From NCBI GenBank assembly GCA_016788665.1, contig JAEUSF010000001.1, forward strand, positions 129,137 through 193,136: a stretch of 64,000 bases of DNA. Direction: 5' to 3'. The notes under the pieces are model-generated. The model was not told the origin of the DNA and made no database searches. It worked only from the letters and a program-made list of their open reading frames with translations. Positions 5,974 to 31,992 of the stretch are shown piece after piece. Within the stretch, counting starts at the first letter, position 1; each line of letters opens with the position of its first letter. This DNA is from Candidatus Doudnabacteria bacterium. GTDB taxonomy: Bacteria > Patescibacteriota > Doudnabacteria > UBA920. The position numbers and the translations under genes were made by a program.

Positions 5974-6273
5974 ATGGAGCTTACACAAGAACATTTTGAT
6001 AAAACTCTTCAAAATCTTGTTTCAAAAAAAGATTTGCAAAACTTGGCAGGCAAGGGTGATTTAGCCTTACTAAGAGAAGATATAGAGGAAATCAAAGTTC
6101 AAAATTCAGCCATAGTAGAGACGTTGAATGTCCATACCAATGTATTGGATCAGTTAGTTAAACAAACTAAAGATTGGAATACTGAAATGGTAATGGTAAG
6201 AGCAAGGCTAGACAGGCATGACCAATGGTTTAAACAAATGGCTGAAAAAATAAATATAAAATTGGACTACTAA
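5974..6273 (+). CDS. hypothetical coiled-coil protein
   Basis: 99 aa ORF, heptad-like charged sequence, 2-nt gap to next gene. Confidence 0.4.
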   Translation: MELTQEHFDKTLQNLVSKKDLQNLAGKGDLALLREDIEEIKVQNSAIVETLNVHTNVLDQLVKQTKDWNTEMVMVRARLDRHDQWFKQMAEKINIKLDY

Positions 6274-22056: not shown

Positions 22057-23220
<1,164 letters not shown>

Positions 23221-23284: not shown

Positions 23285-25183
23285 TTGCTATACTTTATAA
23301 ATATGACAGACAAAACAGAAGAGAAAAAATACCCAAAAGCTGGAACTAAGTGGACAAAAGCCGATGACGAAGTTTTAAAGAAAGAGTATTTGGAAAAGCC
23401 AAATATGCTTTTGTCGGAGTTTGAAAATTTTGTAGACGTTTTAACTTCTAAACTAGGCCGCGCACCAGGCGGAATTAAGGCTCGGCTCGCTATGCACTTT
23501 ACAAACGTTCCGGGCTGGGACTATACGAGGCAGGACGAGTTAGAAGAGCAAACAGCTCTAGCTATAAACGAAGAGCAGTCTCAAATATTAGTTAGTGAAT
23601 ACAAAAAATACTTGGAGCTTAAAAACGAAACTTATTTGGGTTTTATCAAACGTTTGGGGCAAATGCTGGGCGGGGTGGAAAATAAATTTTTAACTCATAG
23701 GTTAAAACAACTGATCGGCGAGATAGAAAAGTACAAGAAAGATGACGTAAGTATTTATTCTGTTTCAAAAAATGTTTTAAAAACTGAAAGCGCAGAAATT
23801 CCGGTTTTAGACTTAAGCGGTAACCGAGAGGGTTTGCAGGCTTTAGAGTTTTTAACTAACACAAGCAAAAATTTGTTTTTAACTGGTGAGGCGGGTACGG
23901 GCAAGTCGACTTTGCTAAACTATTTTCGCAAAACAACTTCCAAAAATGTGGTGGTTTTGGCGCCTACTGGGGTCGCGGCCTTAAACGTGGAAGGGCAGAC
24001 TATACATTCTTTTTGCGGCTTTGGTCCGGACATAACTTTGGCGCGGGTAAAAAAGCTTATGCCTGGTATGCCCAAATTCAAACTCCTTCAAAAGTTAGAC
24101 ACGGTAATAATAGACGAAATTTCTATGGTGCGGGCAGATTTGCTTGACTGTGTAGATAAATATTTACGTATTAACGGTCCGGTTAAAGACTTACCGTTTG
24201 GAGGTATACAAATGGTGTTTATTGGGGACTTGTATCAGTTGCCGCCGGTAGATAAAGACTTTAATCAAGGTGGAGGACTGGTTAAAATGTATAACTCTCC
24301 GTATTTTTTTGACTCCAGAGCCTTTAAAGAAGCGCGGTTTGAATATATAAATTTAAAAACTGTATATAGACAAAAGGATCAGGTTTTTAAAGACGTGCTG
24401 AATGCGGTAAGAAATAACGCCGTAAGTCATGACCATTTAGAAATTTTAAATGCGCGGGCGGAAAATGGTGATGCTAAATTTACGTTTGAAAAATTTGCCA
24501 TTTATTTAACTCCGCACAATATGCGGGCCAGGCAGGTAAATAATTTTTTCTTGGAAAGATTGCCCAGCGAACTAAAAGTTTACCAAGGCGAGGTGGATGG
24601 AAGTTTTGAAGACAGGGAACTGCCGACAGATTTGAACCTGCAGCTCAAAGTCGGTGTCCAGGTTATGATGTTAAACAACGACCAAAGAAAGCGCTGGGTT
24701 AACGGCACAATGGGGAAAATAAAAGCAGTGGTAAAAGAAGACGAAAGCGAACCGGAAGAGAACGAAAACATATATTTACCAGAGGACGAGTTTTTTATCC
24801 CAGAAAAATCTAGTAATTCCGACAGTGTAGTTATAGAGCTGGAAACTGGCGAGACGGTGTATGTAAAACCCCATACCTGGGAAATGTTTAAATTCGTTTT
24901 AGACTCGCAAACGCAAAAAATAGACAGCAGAACCACTGGGACTTTTACGCAGTATCCTTTTAAGCTTGCTTGGGCTGTAACCATACACAAAGCCCAAGGC
25001 AAAACTTTTGACAAGGTTTATGTGGACTTAAGTTCGGGCACTTTTGCTCACGGGCAGCTTTACGTAGCGCTTTCCCGTTGCCGAACACTAGAAGGTTTGT
25101 ACTTAAAGCGGCCTATAGTTCCGAGTGACATAATTTTAGACCAAAGAGTCGTGGAGTTTTTAAAGAATTTTGAAAAAAATTAA
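23285..25183 (+). CDS. PIF1/RecD-like SF1 DNA helicase with about 170-aa N-terminal extension
   Basis: Walker A GEAGTGKST, VLAPTGVAA, Walker B IIDEISMV, C-terminal VTIHKAQGKTFD; alternative start at 23303. Confidence 0.7.
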   Translation: MLYFINMTDKTEEKKYPKAGTKWTKADDEVLKKEYLEKPNMLLSEFENFVDVLTSKLGRAPGGIKARLAMHFTNVPGWDYTRQDELEEQTALAINEEQSQILVSEYKKYLELKNETYLGFIKRLGQMLGGVENKFLTHRLKQLIGEIEKYKKDDVSIYSVSKNVLKTESAEIPVLDLSGNREGLQALEFLTNTSKNLFLTGEAGTGKSTLLNYFRKTTSKNVVVLAPTGVAALNVEGQTIHSFCGFGPDITLARVKKLMPGMPKFKLLQKLDTVIIDEISMVRADLLDCVDKYLRINGPVKDLPFGGIQMVFIGDLYQLPPVDKDFNQGGGLVKMYNSPYFFDSRAFKEARFEYINLKTVYRQKDQVFKDVLNAVRNNAVSHDHLEILNARAENGDAKFTFEKFAIYLTPHNMRARQVNNFFLERLPSELKVYQGEVDGSFEDRELPTDLNLQLKVGVQVMMLNNDQRKRWVNGTMGKIKAVVKEDESEPEENENIYLPEDEFFIPEKSSNSDSVVIELETGETVYVKPHTWEMFKFVLDSQTQKIDSRTTGTFTQYPFKLAWAVTIHKAQGKTFDKVYVDLSSGTFAHGQLYVALSRCRTLEGLYLKRPIVPSDIILDQRVVEFLKNFEKN

Positions 25184-25239
25184 AATAAAAAAATAAGCCT
25201 ACAAAAAGCGTTTAAGCTTTTGGTAGGCTTTTGGGGTAG

Positions 25240-25485
25240 TTAAGGTCTGCGCCCCTGAGTCAGGAATGACTGAAGTTCTCGTCTACGCTTTGCTCTTTCG
25301 GTTAAAGCGGCGAAAACAGGATCGCTTTCGGACGGGGTCGGGATTTCCGCAACTCCAAACTCCTTAATCGCCGCATCTCCTGGTATGAGTAGTTCGCCGC
25401 CAAAGCTTGGCGTCGCGTCGCCTAAAATGGTGGCCTTCTGGATTGTTTTTGCCAGATTGGCCCCGACAACGTCCAGAAAATTCAT
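25240..25485 (-). CDS. hypothetical small protein (GC-rich)
   Basis: 81 aa, strong SD aaggagagg before ATG; divergent from methyltransferase gene. Confidence 0.4.
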   Translation of the reverse strand: MNFLDVVGANLAKTIQKATILGDATPSFGGELLIPGDAAIKEFGVAEIPTPSESDPVFAALTERAKRRRELQSFLTQGRRP

Positions 25486-25640
25486 GATCCTCTCCTTAAT
25501 GAACGGGTGAAAAAACTAGTGTAAATTATACAACATTTCGGTCCCCTTGAAAAGGGTTTGAATATAGGGAGAAATTGATAAAGAGTATGGGGAGGTATAT
25601 ACTAAAAAAGACGTAACATCCGTAAAATAATAATCTTTAA

Positions 25641-26837
25641 ATGGCAAATAGTAATCTTACAAACGCGAAAAAAGCAAAGAATGATGAATTTTATACCCAG
25701 TACTCTGACATCCAAAAAGAGATTGAGGCGTATTTAGATTATGATAAAAATGTTTTTAGAGGTAAGGTTGTTTATTGTAATTGTGATGACCCTTACGAAA
25801 GTAATTTTTTTCGCTATTTTGTTTTAAACTTTAATAAACTTGGACTTAAACGTCTTATAACAACCAGTTACAAACCCTCGCCGGTTGCTAATACCCAGCT
25901 AGCGCTTTTTGGGGACAATAAAACTTTAACAAAAGCAAAAGGCCGGCCAAAAGTTACTGCCAACAAGTTTATTATCAACGAAGTAAAAGATATAGATGGC
26001 GACGGTGAATTTAATTTAAAAGACATTTCCCAGCAACTTAAAGCAAATAAAAGTAACGAATGGACACCCTTGCAAGGCGACGGCGATTTCCGAAGTGAGG
26101 AATCTATAGAATTGCTTAAACAAGCAGATATTGTTGTAACAAATCCGCCGTTTAGTCTCTTTCGTGAATATATAAAGCAACTCGTTGATTACGGGAAGAA
26201 ATTTTTAATTATTGGCAATTTAAACGCAATAACTTATAAGGAAGTATTTCCCTTACTAAAAGAAAATAAAGTTTGGTTAGGCAACAATTACAAAGTTAAT
26301 GGTGGTGCGATGTTTTATGAGATACCTGAAAGAATCGCTAATTTGGAACAAGTCCGTGAGGTTAAAACAAGTGAAAGTGGTCAAAAAGTTTATATAACGA
26401 GAGTGCAAGGTGTTCGCTGGTTTACAAATCTTGATCATGGTCGTCGTCATGAACCGTTACCTTTAATGACCAAGAAAGAAATTATTAAATTTGTGACGAA
26501 AAAATCATTCATTCAATATGATAATTATGACGCTATAGAAGTTACTTTGGTGAAAAATATTCCAAACGATTACGATGGTGTAATCGGAGTGCCGATTAGT
26601 ATAATGGATAAGTACAGCCCAGAACAGTTTGAAATTTTAGGTACAAGTGATAATGGTATTATCAGTGATAAATACAAGAAAACACCAGGTTTAACAAAAA
26701 AATTTGTCGCTGATTATTATAAAGCGGGTGGTACTGGAGCGTATAAGGAAGGTAATCCAACGGCTGGTTACTACGAAGATGGTATTGCAAAAATGGCGTA
26801 TAAAAGAATTTTTATTAGACATAAGAAAAACAAATGA
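25641..26837 (+). CDS. N6-adenine DNA methyltransferase, M.EcoRI family
   Basis: N-terminus DEFYTQYSDIQKEI..VVYCNCDDP and motif IV NPPF as in M.EcoRI-like enzymes. Confidence 0.8.
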   Translation: MANSNLTNAKKAKNDEFYTQYSDIQKEIEAYLDYDKNVFRGKVVYCNCDDPYESNFFRYFVLNFNKLGLKRLITTSYKPSPVANTQLALFGDNKTLTKAKGRPKVTANKFIINEVKDIDGDGEFNLKDISQQLKANKSNEWTPLQGDGDFRSEESIELLKQADIVVTNPPFSLFREYIKQLVDYGKKFLIIGNLNAITYKEVFPLLKENKVWLGNNYKVNGGAMFYEIPERIANLEQVREVKTSESGQKVYITRVQGVRWFTNLDHGRRHEPLPLMTKKEIIKFVTKKSFIQYDNYDAIEVTLVKNIPNDYDGVIGVPISIMDKYSPEQFEILGTSDNGIISDKYKKTPGLTKKFVADYYKAGGTGAYKEGNPTAGYYEDGIAKMAYKRIFIRHKKNK

Positions 26838-27292
26838 ATTTAGAAAAGCTCAGATCAAAAAAAGCGGTTGCCGACGGGATTTATAATCTAGAAGTTAAAT
26901 GTGAATATATTCACCCACAATATTTATTCGAGTATAAAAATAATAATGAAATTTTCAGAAATGGTTTGCTTTCAATTTTTTATTTAAAACCAAAAGTTAA
27001 CAATCTTTATTCCTTCATCGGAAGGTGGGATAATAACAAACAAGTTTTAGATATAGATATTTTAGAAGCGAATGGAAGGGATTTATTTAAGTCAGAAAAA
27101 GATGGTTATAAAGGGCATCACCCAAAAAGATTAGACAAAGATAAAAGAACTTATGAGATTGAGATCTGCTACCCTGTAGTAGGCTTAATTTACAAAGGAC
27201 TAATATCTTTTAACGTAAATTTTGGTAAACAGCTTAATGAAAGTTTTAATATTCAAGATAAAATTAAGTATTGTCTGTCAAAAATATTATGA
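26834..27292 (+). CDS. hypothetical protein translationally coupled between methyltransferase and nuclease
   Basis: ATGA overlaps at both ends; 152 aa, no recognisable domain. Confidence 0.5.
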
Positions 27293-28458
27293 ACACAACC
27301 TTAAAAACTAACATTACTGTAAAAGAAATTTGCGAGGGGTTTGAGTATAATGAGCTTGAGGGCAAGGGGCTTTTTGGGTTGGGTGGGAAGTTGACTATTC
27401 AGCCGGAATATCAGCGCAACTATATTTATGCTTCCGACGGCGGTAAAAGAGAGCAGGCGGTTATCGAATCTATTTTAAAAGGTTATCCCATTGGACTTAT
27501 ATATTTTAATAGAGTTAGCGAAAAGAATTTGGAAGTTCTGGACGGACAGCAGCGTATAACTAGTATTGGCCGTTTTATAACCGACAAATTTGCCATAAAG
27601 GACGAAAACGGATTGCCGCAAAATTTTAGCGGAATGGCAAAAGACAAGAAAACTAAAATTTTGGAAACTAAACTTTTAATATATGAATGCGAAGGTACGG
27701 AGACGGAAATAAAAGAATGGTTCAAAACCATAAATATTGCCGGCGTGCCTTTAAACAATCAAGAACTTTTAAATGCCGTATATTCGGGTCCTTTTGTAAC
27801 TTTGGCAAAGGAAGAATTTAGCAATAGCCAAAATTCAAATATTCAAAAATGGAGCGCGTACATAAAAGGCAGTGCAAATAGGCAGGACTTTTTGGAACGC
27901 GCGTTAGAGTGGGTAAGCAAAGGCGATATCGGCGCTTATATGACTAAGCATAGATACGACAAAAATATTACGGAACTTAAGAAGTATTTTAATATTGTAA
28001 TAGACTGGGTTTCGAAAGTTTTTACGGACGTGGAAGACGAAATGCAGGGCTTAGAGTGGGGAAGGCTTTATGCGCAGCACCATGAAAGAGCTTATAACCC
28101 AAAAAAAGTTTCTGAAGCGGTGCAAAAACTTTATGCTGACCCGTATGTTAAAAACCGCAAAGGGATTTTTGAATATGTTTTAGGGGGCTCAAACGACACA
28201 AAATTGCTAGATGTAAGAATTTTCGACGACGCGACTAAAAAGGTTATTTACAAAGAACAAACCGCTAAGGCAGAAAAGAAAAATGAGTCTAACTGTCCGC
28301 ATTGCGCCCTAGGGCATGATGTTAATAAAGCTAAAATTTGGAAATTAGAAGAAATGGATGCGGATCATGTGGCGGCTTGGAGCAAGGGTGGGGCCACGAC
28401 AGCTAAAAATTGCCAAATGCTTTGCAAGACGCACAATAGGGCAAAGGGTAATAGATAG
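27289..28458 (+). CDS. DUF262 (ParB/GmrS-like NTPase) fused to C-terminal HNH endonuclease
   Basis: [10 protein letters not shown] and DGQQRITSI motifs; C-terminal CPHC...DHV..WSKGG...[14 protein letters not shown] motif. Confidence 0.75.
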
Positions 28459-28544
28459 CATATATTTAAAAGACAATCTAAGTTTAGGAATTACTTGCGG
28501 ATAATAACATTGACATAGAGTGTTCTTTCGTTTACCATAAATTT

Positions 28545-29192
28545 ATGGATTTTTCTGAACTGAAACTAAACAAATTGGGAATAGATAGATCTAAATTTGG
28601 GAGAATTTTTAGTTTTATTGACTATGGTAATGTAAATTATTGGTTTAGGCAAGACAGAAAGGACAAAGACGAAAAAGACTTACAGCTAAATCAAAATTTA
28701 ATTATTGACATAGAAAAACTAGCCGACTTTTTAAATTTATTTTCTAGTCAAAAAAGATTTTATTATGGGTTCAATAATCGAAAACAGCAGTCTTGGCACT
28801 TACCTATTAAAGCGGCAAAATGTGGTTTTATAAAAATTACTAAACCTATTCAATTTATAAAGCATTATTTGAGCGAAGCCGAGTTAAAAGAAATAGAAAA
28901 ACCAGAATTACTAAATCAAGACCTTGGGGGTAAGTTTGTTGAAATTCCGAAAAGCAATTTTGATGTTGAAATAAGTGTGGATGCTATACGGCTTATAGAA
29001 AGTTACGATACTTTATTTTTAATGTCAGGGGATAGTGACTTTGCAGTTTTAGTTAAACATCTAAAGCGCAAAGGAAAGAAAGTAATTATTGCTGCGTCTG
29101 GTAAGGTATTTCATTCGTTAAGAGAGCAGGCTGATTTATATATTAATGCCCAACAAATAAAGGCTTATATTACCTCCGTAAAGACTTATTAA
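28545..29192 (+). CDS. NYN/LabA-like (PIN-fold) domain protein
   Basis: IDYGNVNYW and LFLMSGDSDF..LVKHLKRKGKKV motifs. Confidence 0.6.
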   Translation: MDFSELKLNKLGIDRSKFGRIFSFIDYGNVNYWFRQDRKDKDEKDLQLNQNLIIDIEKLADFLNLFSSQKRFYYGFNNRKQQSWHLPIKAAKCGFIKITKPIQFIKHYLSEAELKEIEKPELLNQDLGGKFVEIPKSNFDVEISVDAIRLIESYDTLFLMSGDSDFAVLVKHLKRKGKKVIIAASGKVFHSLREQADLYINAQQIKAYITSVKTY

Positions 29193-29268
29193 AAATATAA
29201 ATTAGAAAACCTCGCTTGTTACGGCGAGGTTTGGATATCGGATCCCGCTCCGCGGGACAGGGTAGCTT

Positions 29269-29813: not shown

Positions 29814-31541
29814 TTATCCCCATTCTATAGTAACTGGGGGTTTGTCGGAAATTCTGTAGACTACTCCGCCGACTTCGCGGACTTCGTTGGTTATGCGTTG
29901 GCTAACATGCTTTAAAAAGTCGTAAGGTAGTTCTGCCGCTCTGGCAGTAAAGCCGTTTACGCTCCATACAGCCCAGAGGGCTATAACATGTCCTTCGGCT
30001 GAGTCATCGCCTTTGGTGCAGGTTATGTAGGAGTTGGTAACGACTGCTCCGGCTTGCCAGATTTGGCTATATAAAGACATGGACAATTCTTTAACTCCCC
30101 CTTGCCCCCTCTTTTGAAAAGAGGGGGAAGCGAGAGAAGACTTCCAGTTTTTTAGTTCTTCTACAAAAATGCCGTCTACTTTCCTGGCAGTGTGGAGTTT
30201 TTCTGCTGTTATTTCGCCTTCTATGCGCACAACAAGTCCGGGGCCTGGGAATGGATGCCTTACCAGCAATTCTTCCGGTACGCCAATTTCGCGGCCAATT
30301 TGTCTACCTGTGTCCTTAACCGAGTCTACTAAAGGTTGCAGTTCCGGTAGGGAGAATTTTAAGTTTACGTTGTGGTGGATTTTAATTTGGGCTTTACGTG
30401 CGCCGCTCTTATAACCGCCGCCGCTTTCGGACACGTCGGTATACAAAGTTCCTTGGGCTAAGAAGTCGGCTTTAAACTTTTTGGCTTCGGTTTCTAAAAT
30501 TTTTTTATATACTCCGCGCATGGCCATACGCTTGTCGCGCATAACTTTTTTACCTTTAAGTGCTTTTAAAAATTCTTTGGTAGCGTCTACTATTTTTATG
30601 TCTATCCAGTTTGCTTTACCAAAGTATTTTATAACATTGGCCTCGTCGTCCGGACGGTCTATGCCTTTTATATAAATTCCACGAACGGGAAGATGACCGT
30701 CATTCTCTTTCTGAGAATGACGGTCATCTAAAGCATGTTTAAGCAGGTAGGCGACAACAGCAGAGTCGGTTCCGCCGGAAAGGGCAAGTAAAACTTTTTT
30801 TCTCGCGATTTGGTTTTTTAGCTGTTCAATTTTAGTCTGGGCAACCGAAGCGGCAGGGAAGCGGTCGCGGGCTTTGCAAATTATAAAAACAAAGTTTTCC
30901 AAAATTTTTCCACCAAATTCGCTTTCGGTTACTTCTGGGTGGAACTGTACTCCGTATAAGTGTTTGTATTCCGCGGCGGAAGCAGGAGCATTTTCGGTAG
31001 AGCCTAAAATTTTAAGTTTTTTGTCCGCTGCTATTTTGTCACCGTGGCTTTCAAGTACTAAAGAATGCGTTGGTATGTCTTTAAATAGTGGAGACTTGCC
31101 GTGTAGTTTAAATTTATGGGTGCCAAACTCTCTTTTGTCAGATAGCGAAACATTTACGCCAACATGGTACGCCCACATTTGAAAACCTAAACAAATCCCT
31201 AAAGTAGGAATACCCATGTCAAAAATTTTTCCTTCAAAAGGCGGGTATTCGTAAGCAGAGGAAGGTCCGCCGGAGAGTATAATGCCTTTAGGTTCAAGTT
31301 TTTTTACGTCTTCCGCCTTTACTTTGCTGGGGTCTGCAACTAGGCAAAATACGCCAAGAGCGTCGAGCTGTTGTTTTATAAGGTGGTCGAACTGGCTACC
31401 CATGGAAAACAACAAAAAAAGCTCGTCGGTTTTACGCACGCGCTTTTCTTCGGCAATTTCCTGTAAAGTTTTTTCTGAAGTGTTGGTTAAAGTGTTTAGC
31501 ATATTATTTTGGATTTTAGCATAACTTAGTTGTTTATTCAA
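29814..31541 (-). CDS. guaA: GMP synthase (glutamine-hydrolysing)
   Basis: class I GATase, PP-loop SGGTDS, conserved C-terminal dimerisation domain; 575 aa with extra N-terminal residues. Confidence 0.85.
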   Translation of the reverse strand: MNKQLSYAKIQNNMLNTLTNTSEKTLQEIAEEKRVRKTDELFLLFSMGSQFDHLIKQQLDALGVFCLVADPSKVKAEDVKKLEPKGIILSGGPSSAYEYPPFEGKIFDMGIPTLGICLGFQMWAYHVGVNVSLSDKREFGTHKFKLHGKSPLFKDIPTHSLVLESHGDKIAADKKLKILGSTENAPASAAEYKHLYGVQFHPEVTESEFGGKILENFVFIICKARDRFPAASVAQTKIEQLKNQIARKKVLLALSGGTDSAVVAYLLKHALDDRHSQKENDGHLPVRGIYIKGIDRPDDEANVIKYFGKANWIDIKIVDATKEFLKALKGKKVMRDKRMAMRGVYKKILETEAKKFKADFLAQGTLYTDVSESGGGYKSGARKAQIKIHHNVNLKFSLPELQPLVDSVKDTGRQIGREIGVPEELLVRHPFPGPGLVVRIEGEITAEKLHTARKVDGIFVEELKNWKSSLASPSFQKRGQGGVKELSMSLYSQIWQAGAVVTNSYITCTKGDDSAEGHVIALWAVWSVNGFTARAAELPYDFLKHVSQRITNEVREVGGVVYRISDKPPVTIEWG

Positions 31542-31614: not shown

Positions 31615-31688
31615 TGGTGGACCATCGGAGAATCGAACTCCGACATGCCGGATGCAAACCGGCCGCACTACCATTATGCTAATGGCCC
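31615..31688 (-). tRNA. tRNA-Ala(TGC), CCA encoded
   Basis: cloverleaf by hand; anticodon loop TTTGCAT; G3:U70 identity pair; hairpin plus T-run downstream. Confidence 0.8.
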
Positions 31689-31992
31689 AAGTATTTTTTT
31701 GAGAAACCTTCTTCCAGCCGCTGATTTAAAATATAATTCTCTTTTTCTTGCTTCTAAAGCTGTCGCGTACTGCTCTGTATATACCACCCGCAATCCTGAC
31801 ATTTTGCTGGTTGTTCTGGTGTGACCAGATATATGTTCCTTTAATCGCCTGTCGAGGTTATTTGTAAATCCTTTATATAACTTATTTTTATCATCTTTCA
31901 ATATATAAACAGTATACATATTGTTTCCGCACCCCGCCCGTACCGAACGGTACGTTCGGGCGGGTACCATTATGCTAATGGCCCAAGTATTT
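31669..31992 (-). mobile_element. 296-bp GIY-YIG cassette flanked by 28-bp direct repeats duplicating the tRNA-Ala 5' end
   Basis: identical taccattatgctaatggcccaagtattt at 31669-31696 and 31965-31992; GC-rich hairpin 31934-31965 between repeat and ORF. Confidence 0.55.
31674..31919 (-). CDS. stand-alone GIY-YIG endonuclease (81 aa)
   Basis: MYTVYILKD..KLYKGFTNNLDRRLKEH GIY-YIG core; stop codon lies inside tRNA-Ala 5' end. Confidence 0.6.
   Translation of the reverse strand: MYTVYILKDDKNKLYKGFTNNLDRRLKEHISGHTRTTSKMSGLRVVYTEQYATALEARKRELYFKSAAGRRFLKKILGPLA

Follow-up and report, generated by a model that had tools for sequence, protein, structure and literature searches.

The 64,000-nucleotide (nt) stretch of DNA analysed here, referred to as the window, is part of a 212-kb contig of a Candidatus Doudnabacteria metagenome-assembled genome, and at positions 25641–29192 it carries four consecutive genes: a gene of an adenine methyltransferase (M), a gene of a 152-amino-acid (aa) protein termed orfX, a gene of a nuclease (R) and a NYN-domain gene. 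The analysis makes it likely that M and R constitute a classical two-gene restriction-modification (RM) operon, in which foreign orfX was inserted as the middle cistron encoding an accessory effector, and that neither the NYN gene nor the PIF1-like helicase gene located upstream is a component of this system. The RM kind of system appears to be known already, and what appears to be new is the orfX cargo, which is probably lineage-specific and has no recognisable fold. The genes of the locus are as follows (window coordinates):

25641–26837, + strand: M, EcoRI-family N6-adenine DNA methyltransferase, 398 aa (PF13651, PADLOC MTase_II)
26834–27292, + strand: orfX, putative inserted cargo gene, all-beta model, unannotated family, 152 aa
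27289–28458, + strand: R, DUF262 domain with C-terminal zinc-finger HNH nuclease, 389 aa from ATG
28545–29192, + strand: NYN-domain gene, 215 aa (PF01936)

The list of open reading frames (ORFs) places all four genes where the preliminary description of this DNA had put them, and the only correction concerns R, that is present as described but comprises 389 aa when read from ATG and not 390 (the alternative upstream TTG start gives 395 aa). As that description had also noted, ATGA stop/start overlaps are seen directly in the sequence at both the M-orfX and the orfX-R junction, so that the three cistrons are probably translated together, and a spacer of 86 bp separates R from the NYN gene. The domain calls hold as well, since EcoRI_methylase, DUF262 with HNH, and NYN are all recognised by Pfam and orfX gives no match.

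M is aligned with the whole EcoRI_methylase profile (PF13651, 3.6e-126, positions 1–345 of 345) and with the PADLOC model MTase_II (3.9e-103, covering aa 3–342 of 398). It contains the NPPF motif at aa 168–171, which is invariant in 56 homologues, so M has both the family and the (N/D)PP(F/Y/W) motif of an S-adenosylmethionine-dependent methyltransferase of a type II system. The protein consists of a conserved core and three hypervariable segments (aa 91–145, 211–260 and 336–385), which could be target-recognition regions. In R, the N-terminal GmrSD_N/DUF262 domain (Pfam, 1e-20) is followed by an HNH nuclease (PF01844, 2.2e-6), and the C-terminus matches both PF01844 and PF14279 HNH with the motif ADH...N...HN. 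The match of R to the PADLOC type II restriction endonuclease model REase_II (PDLC03418, 8.7e-83) extends from end to end (residues 7–388 on profile positions 6–371 of 372), which places R in a catalogued type II endonuclease family. The earlier assignment of the locus to defence holds up. Across 56 loci the DUF262 signatures of R, including LDGQQRITS, are invariant, and so is SNCxxC ... ADHVxAWSxxG ... NCxxLCxxHNRAKGN in its nuclease part, while approximately 170 residues between DUF262 and HNH could form a recognition domain of its own. Homologues of R fall into more than 8000 clusters at E ≤ 1e-10; nearly all of the 120 matches listed have 389 aa and are 81–86% identical, the named ones among them come from Patescibacteria, Omnitrophota, Chloroflexota and Sedimentisphaerales, and some homologues are labelled McrA in the Joint Genome Institute (JGI) annotation. 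The search of the R sequence against PDB gave nothing at E ≤ 0.01, and the AlphaFold2 model of R was poor (predicted local distance difference test, pLDDT, 49.9; shallow alignment of 81–86% identical sequences) and was not used for a fold search.

The view of M and R as a functionally coupled pair holds up when their neighbourhoods are compared, as far as gene order and divergence can tell. Two sets of loci were used, i.e., a genome set of 80 loci from species-representative genomes, to which three contexts read were added and from which one duplicate was removed (82 loci), and a metagenome set of 80 loci. M adjoins R (−23 to +17 nt) in 58 loci of the genome set, lies more than 300 nt apart in 14 and is undetected in two despite at least 1200 nt of upstream sequence, the remaining loci being too short to judge; the respective numbers in the metagenome set are 53, 15 and three (again with at least 1200 nt upstream). 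In both sets together, an EcoRI-family methylase immediately precedes R in 111 of approximately 147 informative loci from many phyla, with the start of R located −23 to +33 nt from the end of M in the 111 adjacent loci, often with a 4-nt ATGA overlap or a 1-nt gap. In the first three contexts (Chloroflexota, Omnitrophota and a 4.5-Mb contig) the EcoRI_methylase gene is followed by R with nothing in between, ending 1 nt before the R start or overlapping it by 4 nt. The pairwise identities of the two proteins are correlated (r 0.48 across the 56 loci in which M and R are both complete), and the endonuclease gene is thus separate, adjacent (58 and 53 loci) and co-inherited with M, as in type II systems. 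In one locus (L003, 4988–5999, on a 4.5-Mb contig from a metagenome) the methylase reading frame is broken into ORFs of 158 and 198 aa next to an intact R, which is either an assembly frameshift or a case of R tolerating the loss of M.

The R family occurs in bacteria of the Candidate Phyla Radiation (CPR), in Chloroflexota, Bacteroidota, Actinomycetota, Bacillota and Proteobacteria, on plasmids and in a phage. The M-R pair is carried by a 9-kb plasmid of Moraxella osloensis (L084), by megaplasmids of E. faecium and by Arthrobacter plasmids, and in the Flavobacterium phage laban6-1 (L085) it constitutes gp07–gp08, a moron inside the structural-gene region; carriage as a phage moron and on a very small plasmid shows how the pair spreads. 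It had been argued in the preliminary description that a methyltransferase with a DUF262-HNH protein fits no standard type II layout, and that DUF262 nucleases are not co-encoded with a cognate methylase. Both arguments fail for the R family, given the MTase_II and REase_II matches and the 111 adjacent loci, and homologues of this DUF262-HNH protein are not routinely solitary. The M-R pair appears to be a member of a catalogued RM family, type II-like and apparently unstudied. Of the trio M-orfX-R that had been proposed as a unit, M-R is conserved elsewhere, while the combination with orfX is not and seems to be present in this genome alone among the loci examined.

orfX had been described as a protein with no recognisable fold, and this was confirmed with profile libraries as well as with structure prediction. 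No match was found in Pfam, PADLOC, NCBIfam or PHROGs, and the word-indexed homology search returned only orfX itself. The exhaustive phmmer search gave 261 cluster representatives at E ≤ 1e-3, all of them stand-alone proteins of approximately 140–180 aa, none of which has a sequence match in Pfam or PDB. In the family alignment R64 and H95 are invariant and W65, D66, D73, D75 and G94 are nearly so, forming the patterns RWD..LDID and GY.GHH, and the AlphaFold2 model is confident (pLDDT 90.7, predicted template modelling score 0.78) and all-beta, with only two short helices. Foldseek comparison of this model with PDB and BFVD gave nothing at E ≤ 1e-3. Judged by this conservation, orfX is a real gene. 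A frameshifted piece of an EcoRI-like endonuclease, considered as its possible origin, was ruled out, as the relatives are complete stand-alone proteins of 140–180 aa.

The distribution of the orfX family was followed in the M-R loci and beyond them. The family profile hidden Markov model (E ≤ 1), applied to all ORFs of approximately 165 other M-R loci, gave no match, with which tblastn agrees, and tblastn against sequenced plasmids and phages was negative as well. The homologues found elsewhere are not adjacent to RM genes and no common partner gene was found for them; one lies beside an integrase, another follows an Abi_alpha gene at a distance of 56 bp, with a resolvase nearby, and others are found near a pPIWI-associated nuclease, beside an IS3 transposase and near a TerL-like gene. 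The GC content is 27.7% for orfX, 30.4% for the NYN gene, 33.9% for M and 39.4% for R, and the value for orfX, far below those of M and R, fits its separate acquisition. Like RM-embedded toxins, orfX is located inside an RM operon and is co-directional with it (ATGA overlaps), and no domain typical of toxins or effectors (such as HEPN, Fic, RhuM or PIN) could be recognised in it. By association, the most likely function of orfX is that of an accessory effector which acts alone but is expressed in concert with the RM operon; it could serve in second-line defence, as a toxin, or as a guard in the style of PrrC.

The insertion of orfX is one of many at the same place, since approximately one in five M-R loci contains other genes in the M|R slot, all of them running in the same direction as M and R. 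Many of the cargo-bearing loci come from CPR/Patescibacteria. The loci and their cargo are:

L006–L029, L049, L064 and L103–L180, from M stop to R start; in the window 26834–27292: loci with genes in the M|R slot
Cargo recognised by Pfam: AAA_13, Fic, DUF2130, AAA_15/AAA_21, Bro-N, T5orf172/MUG113, ORF6N and RhuM (RhuM in many loci)
Further cargo recognised by Pfam: DUF3800, PhdYefM with PIN, Shedu SduA_C, D12 methylase and a weak HEPN match
Other cargo: IS3 transposase and several proteins without a Pfam family

The PrrC/RloC ABC ATPases are taken here as members of the Pfam ATPase family AAA_13. RM operons with embedded toxins of the PrrC/RloC, RhuM-like and Fic/DOC kinds were already described and read as multilevel defence (PMC3710099), and the repertoire of the M|R slot overlaps with these toxins. 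Since the slot recurrently holds RM-linked toxin-type cargo, orfX is best read as another passenger. Some loci of Saccharibacteria type (L009, 2575–4864, and L123, 3881–6004) contain between M and R a 420–470-aa protein without a family and a second adenine methylase, of the D12 class, an arrangement that amounts to RM-in-RM nesting. It was also considered that the insertion of cargo duplicates the M|R junction, and this was rejected, as the mean identity of 0.50 vs. 0.445 is not significant (Mann-Whitney p 0.06) in a test in which several cargo starts were mis-detected. The duplication looks striking in L012, L017 and L049, which is anecdote only, and the AAA_13 cargo of L007 (2406–2435 vs. 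6001–6030) starts with METSLKINL, resembling the R N-terminus MKTILKTDI. The initial codons of R may thus have been captured in some insertions, a hint without statistical support across the loci.

In the proposed mechanism M would protect host DNA by N6-methyladenine methylation. R, which is translationally coupled to M, would be a restriction nuclease composed of a ParB/Srx-like DUF262 nucleoside triphosphate (NTP)-binding domain and a zinc-finger HNH domain, in which, as we infer, NTP binding gates HNH cleavage; it would be NTP-modulated, cutting unmethylated DNA and blocked by the adenine methylation introduced by M. The pair itself is an ancient and highly mobile unit, present in most bacterial phyla, on plasmids and in a phage. 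In the Candidatus Doudnabacteria genome, the foreign orfX of very low GC content would have been inserted exactly at the M|R junction, where it is read as the middle cistron and is presumably dispensable for M-R function. It would be one case of a recurrent habit of the slot, which in about one-fifth of the loci holds co-directional genes, mostly of toxin or abortive-infection type and familiar from other RM operons.

Several observations weigh against this reading. In 98.4% of locus pairs the sequence of R is better conserved than that of M (mean identity 72.7% vs. 57.3%), which reverses the usual type II pattern, and R may differ from a self-sufficient sequence-specific endonuclease. The site GAATTC occurs 7 times in the window against 17.6 expected (z −2.5), with generic palindromes depleted equally or more across the host loci; in 866 kb of host loci summed there is generic avoidance only (GGCC, GATC, CATG and CTAG), the GAATTC ratio being 0.71. 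RefSeq calls R a "DUF262 domain-containing protein", neither RefSeq nor NCBIfam names it a restriction enzyme, and a description of the M-R pair was not found in the literature searched (DUF262/HNH/methyltransferase, EcoRI, REBASE, PF13651). As to orfX, several of its homologues are found in ordinary chromosomal neighbourhoods, and the defence role suggested for it is guilt by association only.

As R evolves more slowly than M, it might depend on M in a type III-like manner. One may ask if R has no site recognition of its own and functions as an NTP-gated ParB-like clamp or switch with an HNH nuclease relying on M, similarly to type III Res relying on Mod, which would make the pair a distinct RM class. 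The conservation of R, the three hypervariable segments of M as potential target-recognition regions and the invariant NTP-binding DGQQR motif of R would all agree with such dependence, and DUF262 is an NTPase domain that licenses the nuclease in GmrSD, BrxU and SspE (PMC11322646; PMC12707154; PMC4619093). The invariant motif also raises doubt about cleavage that requires Mg2+ only. However, the PADLOC model is labelled type II, the approximately 170 residues between DUF262 and HNH could be a recognition domain, and the high conservation of R could reflect its two catalytic domains together with recent horizontal spread. On balance the type III-like dependence is unlikely, though to be taken seriously. 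A broader version of it, in which M-R would be a very large, phylum-spanning and unusually conserved RM class, uncharacterised in the literature searched, with an R that is NTP-gated and M-dependent for its target, with a slot for second-line defence and with orfX as a new RM-guarding effector, is somewhat less probable still.

Situated between the two genes, orfX lies where translational coupling has to pass through it, which raises the question of a regulatory or immunity function. In type II systems small genes between M and R are often controllers, and orfX could be an analogue of C-proteins by which R expression is delayed or damped, or it could inhibit R. Yet C-proteins are small helix-turn-helix proteins, and the orfX model is all-beta without such a motif and orfX has no match to helix-turn-helix families, most M-R pairs do without orfX, members of its family are located far from RM genes, and the conserved R/W/D/D/H/H cluster suggests a ligand or catalytic site rather than a repressor. 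Such a function of orfX is considered improbable.

The chance is slimmer yet that R is a modification-dependent type IV nuclease of the GmrSD type and that the adjacent methylase is not its protective partner. The N-terminal DUF262/GmrSD_N domain with DGQQR, found in R, is the hallmark of GmrSD, BrxU and SspE, and the McrA label given by JGI to some R homologues points in the same direction. In R, however, the C-terminal nuclease is the PF01844 HNH, and Pfam finds no DUF1524 (EHxxP) nuclease in it; the full-length match is to a type II and not to a type IV model; and, where a GmrSD-type enzyme would stand alone, R has a methylase coupled upstream in 111 of approximately 147 informative loci, the strict stop/start coupling of which, together with co-divergence, is the signature of a cognate pair. 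Finally, the proposal of the preliminary description that a single multi-component system comprises M, orfX, R and perhaps NYN, with orfX as an adaptor coupling the methylase to the DUF262-HNH protein, agrees with the two ATGA overlaps and with the lack of a terminator-like hairpin between R and NYN, but it is largely refuted by the comparative data and is hardly credible, as M and R are directly adjacent without a third gene in 111 loci, no relative of orfX or NYN is found in approximately 165 M-R loci, orfX homologues elsewhere have no RM neighbours and the GC content of orfX is sharply unlike that of M and R.

The RM operon with its orfX insertion is surrounded by other genes and signals, that are listed below:

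23285–25183: PIF1-like helicase gene, upstream of M
25195–25235: hairpin with U-run, located between PIF1 and the 81-aa gene convergent with it, marking the upstream limit of the locus
25240–25485, − strand: ORF of 81 aa, 52.4% GC, divergent from M
25575–25603, + strand: promoter-like site TTGATA-17-TATACT upstream of M (consensus scan, 10/12 matches)
28510–28538: promoter-like site TTGACA-17-TACCAT just before the NYN gene (consensus scan)
29207–29232: hairpin directly 3′ of the NYN stop codon (folding compared with shuffles)

The NYN gene is a clear member of its family (PF01936, 1.1e-16), and no relative of it was found by tblastn in 163 M-R loci. The same search with PIF1 gave one weak match of 28% identity, located on the opposite strand approximately 1.7 kb downstream of R in L120, which does not suggest linkage to M-R. 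The genes that follow R in the three contexts read first are unrelated to NYN or PIF1. The NYN gene, which had been counted as a part of the module, the PIF1-like helicase and the 81-aa gene are neighbours in a low-GC island rather than components of the system. As the R-NYN spacer contains no stable hairpin (z +0.38) and no terminator separates the two genes, NYN may be co-transcribed with R, but it also has a promoter-like site of its own. The PIF1/RecD-like SF1B helicase (23285–25183), noticed already in the preliminary description together with the divergent GC-rich small ORF, contains an N-terminal extension of approximately 170 aa without a Pfam match and gives partial PADLOC matches to PDC-S68 and type IV RecD, so the island may contain in it a further defence gene, separate from the operon. 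The GC content of the 81-aa ORF (25240–25485, − strand) is 52.4%, compared with 40% for the genome. This ORF has a promoter-like site and a strong Shine-Dalgarno sequence, AAGGAGAGG; no match in Pfam, PADLOC, PDB or plasmids was found for it.

The AT-richness of the locus relative to its flanks is real, as its GC content is 34.1% compared with 39.9% for the window, and only 0.8% of equal-sized windows are as low. Bracketing by terminators was observed in part: the hairpin after PIF1 (−19.2 kcal/mol, z −3.65, with 0/200 shuffles folding as well) is followed by a U-run, but that after NYN (−16.6 kcal/mol, z −3.62) has a T-run on the − strand only and none on the + strand. The consensus scan for terminators did not exceed shuffles (7 found vs. 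5.4 ± 2.6), nor did the scan for promoter-like sites as a whole, and the site upstream of M is a candidate only. Flanking att-like repeats were searched for and none was found, and the Rfam scan of 22–33 kb gave two tRNAs and nothing else. The island separates guaB (inosine monophosphate dehydrogenase, 22099–23220, + strand) from guaA (guanosine monophosphate synthase, 29814–31541, − strand), both named by eye from the translations without a domain search, and between them lie the PIF1-like helicase, the 81-aa gene, M-orfX-R, NYN and a membrane-like ORF of 168 aa; the genes from orfX through the 168-aa ORF have 28–30% GC, R excepted. Beyond guaA there is a perfect 28-nt direct repeat (31669–31696 and 31965–31992) that flanks an ORF of 98 aa (31674–31970, − strand), GIY-YIG-like as judged by eye only, with no domain search run, and one copy of the repeat overlaps the 5′ end of tRNA-Ala (31615–31688, − strand). 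The repeats and the ORF have the appearance of a small element whose insertion at the tRNA duplicated the target.

The interest of the locus is in the conservation of R, its NTPase-HNH build, the cargo slot and orfX, and not in a new system architecture. A common RM pair, with more than 8000 R clusters, is labelled generically as "DUF262 domain-containing protein" or "HNH endonuclease" in the RefSeq/GenBank records examined, and recognising R as a restriction enzyme would improve the annotation of defence, especially in small CPR genomes. For type II systems, a ParB-like NTPase that is joined to HNH and evolves slower than its methylase is unusual. Compact and easy to search, the M|R junction gathers known toxins linked to RM (RhuM, Fic, AAA_13, Shedu and others) as well as many proteins without a family, including orfX, and it may be a source of new accessory defence genes.

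Among known systems, the Menshen protein NsnA and component A of PD-T4-2 have the DUF262 domain in common with R, which PADLOC matches to both (NsnA 5.6e-28, PD-T4-2_A 2.8e-15), though only partially, over approximately residues 33–211 (33–187 for NsnA). They differ in having another C-terminal domain, while the R locus has a methylase partner, and PADLOC found no NsnB, NsnC or PD-T4-2 partner gene among the neighbours of R. With GmrSD, BrxU and SspE, R shares the N-terminal DUF262 with (I/V)DGQQR, a His-Me finger nuclease that follows it, and probable gating by NTP. The nuclease of these enzymes is DUF1524/EHxxP, whereas R has the PF01844 HNH with CxxC...CxxxC and is strictly linked to a cognate methylase, and is therefore predicted to be blocked by modification rather than dependent on it.

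PrrC-EcoPrrI, rlo, RhuM and Fic in type I RM operons are accessory and often toxic genes that, like orfX, are located inside an RM operon and co-expressed with it, and the RM-embedded AAA_13, RhuM, Fic and ORF6N families also occupy the M|R slot in other genomes (PMC3710099). The hosts of PrrC-type genes are hsdMSR operons and here the host is a two-gene type II-like operon; unlike PrrC, RloC, RhuM or Fic, orfX has no HEPN, ABC, Fic or RhuM domain or known fold, and the role of a guard is an analogy. The closest to M-R are type II RM systems with HNH endonucleases, such as KpnI, Hpy99I and PacI. The classical enzymes of this type have no N-terminal DUF262 ParB-like NTP-binding domain, and R is here, contrary to what is usual, more conserved than M. 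The partner of M.EcoRI is a PD-(D/E)XK enzyme, so that only the methylase is EcoRI-like here: M is a full-length PF13651 protein with NPPF, as in the M.EcoRI family. R has the zinc-finger HNH C-terminus of type II HNH enzymes, and M and R, as in these systems, are separate genes of one operon joined by a stop/start overlap.

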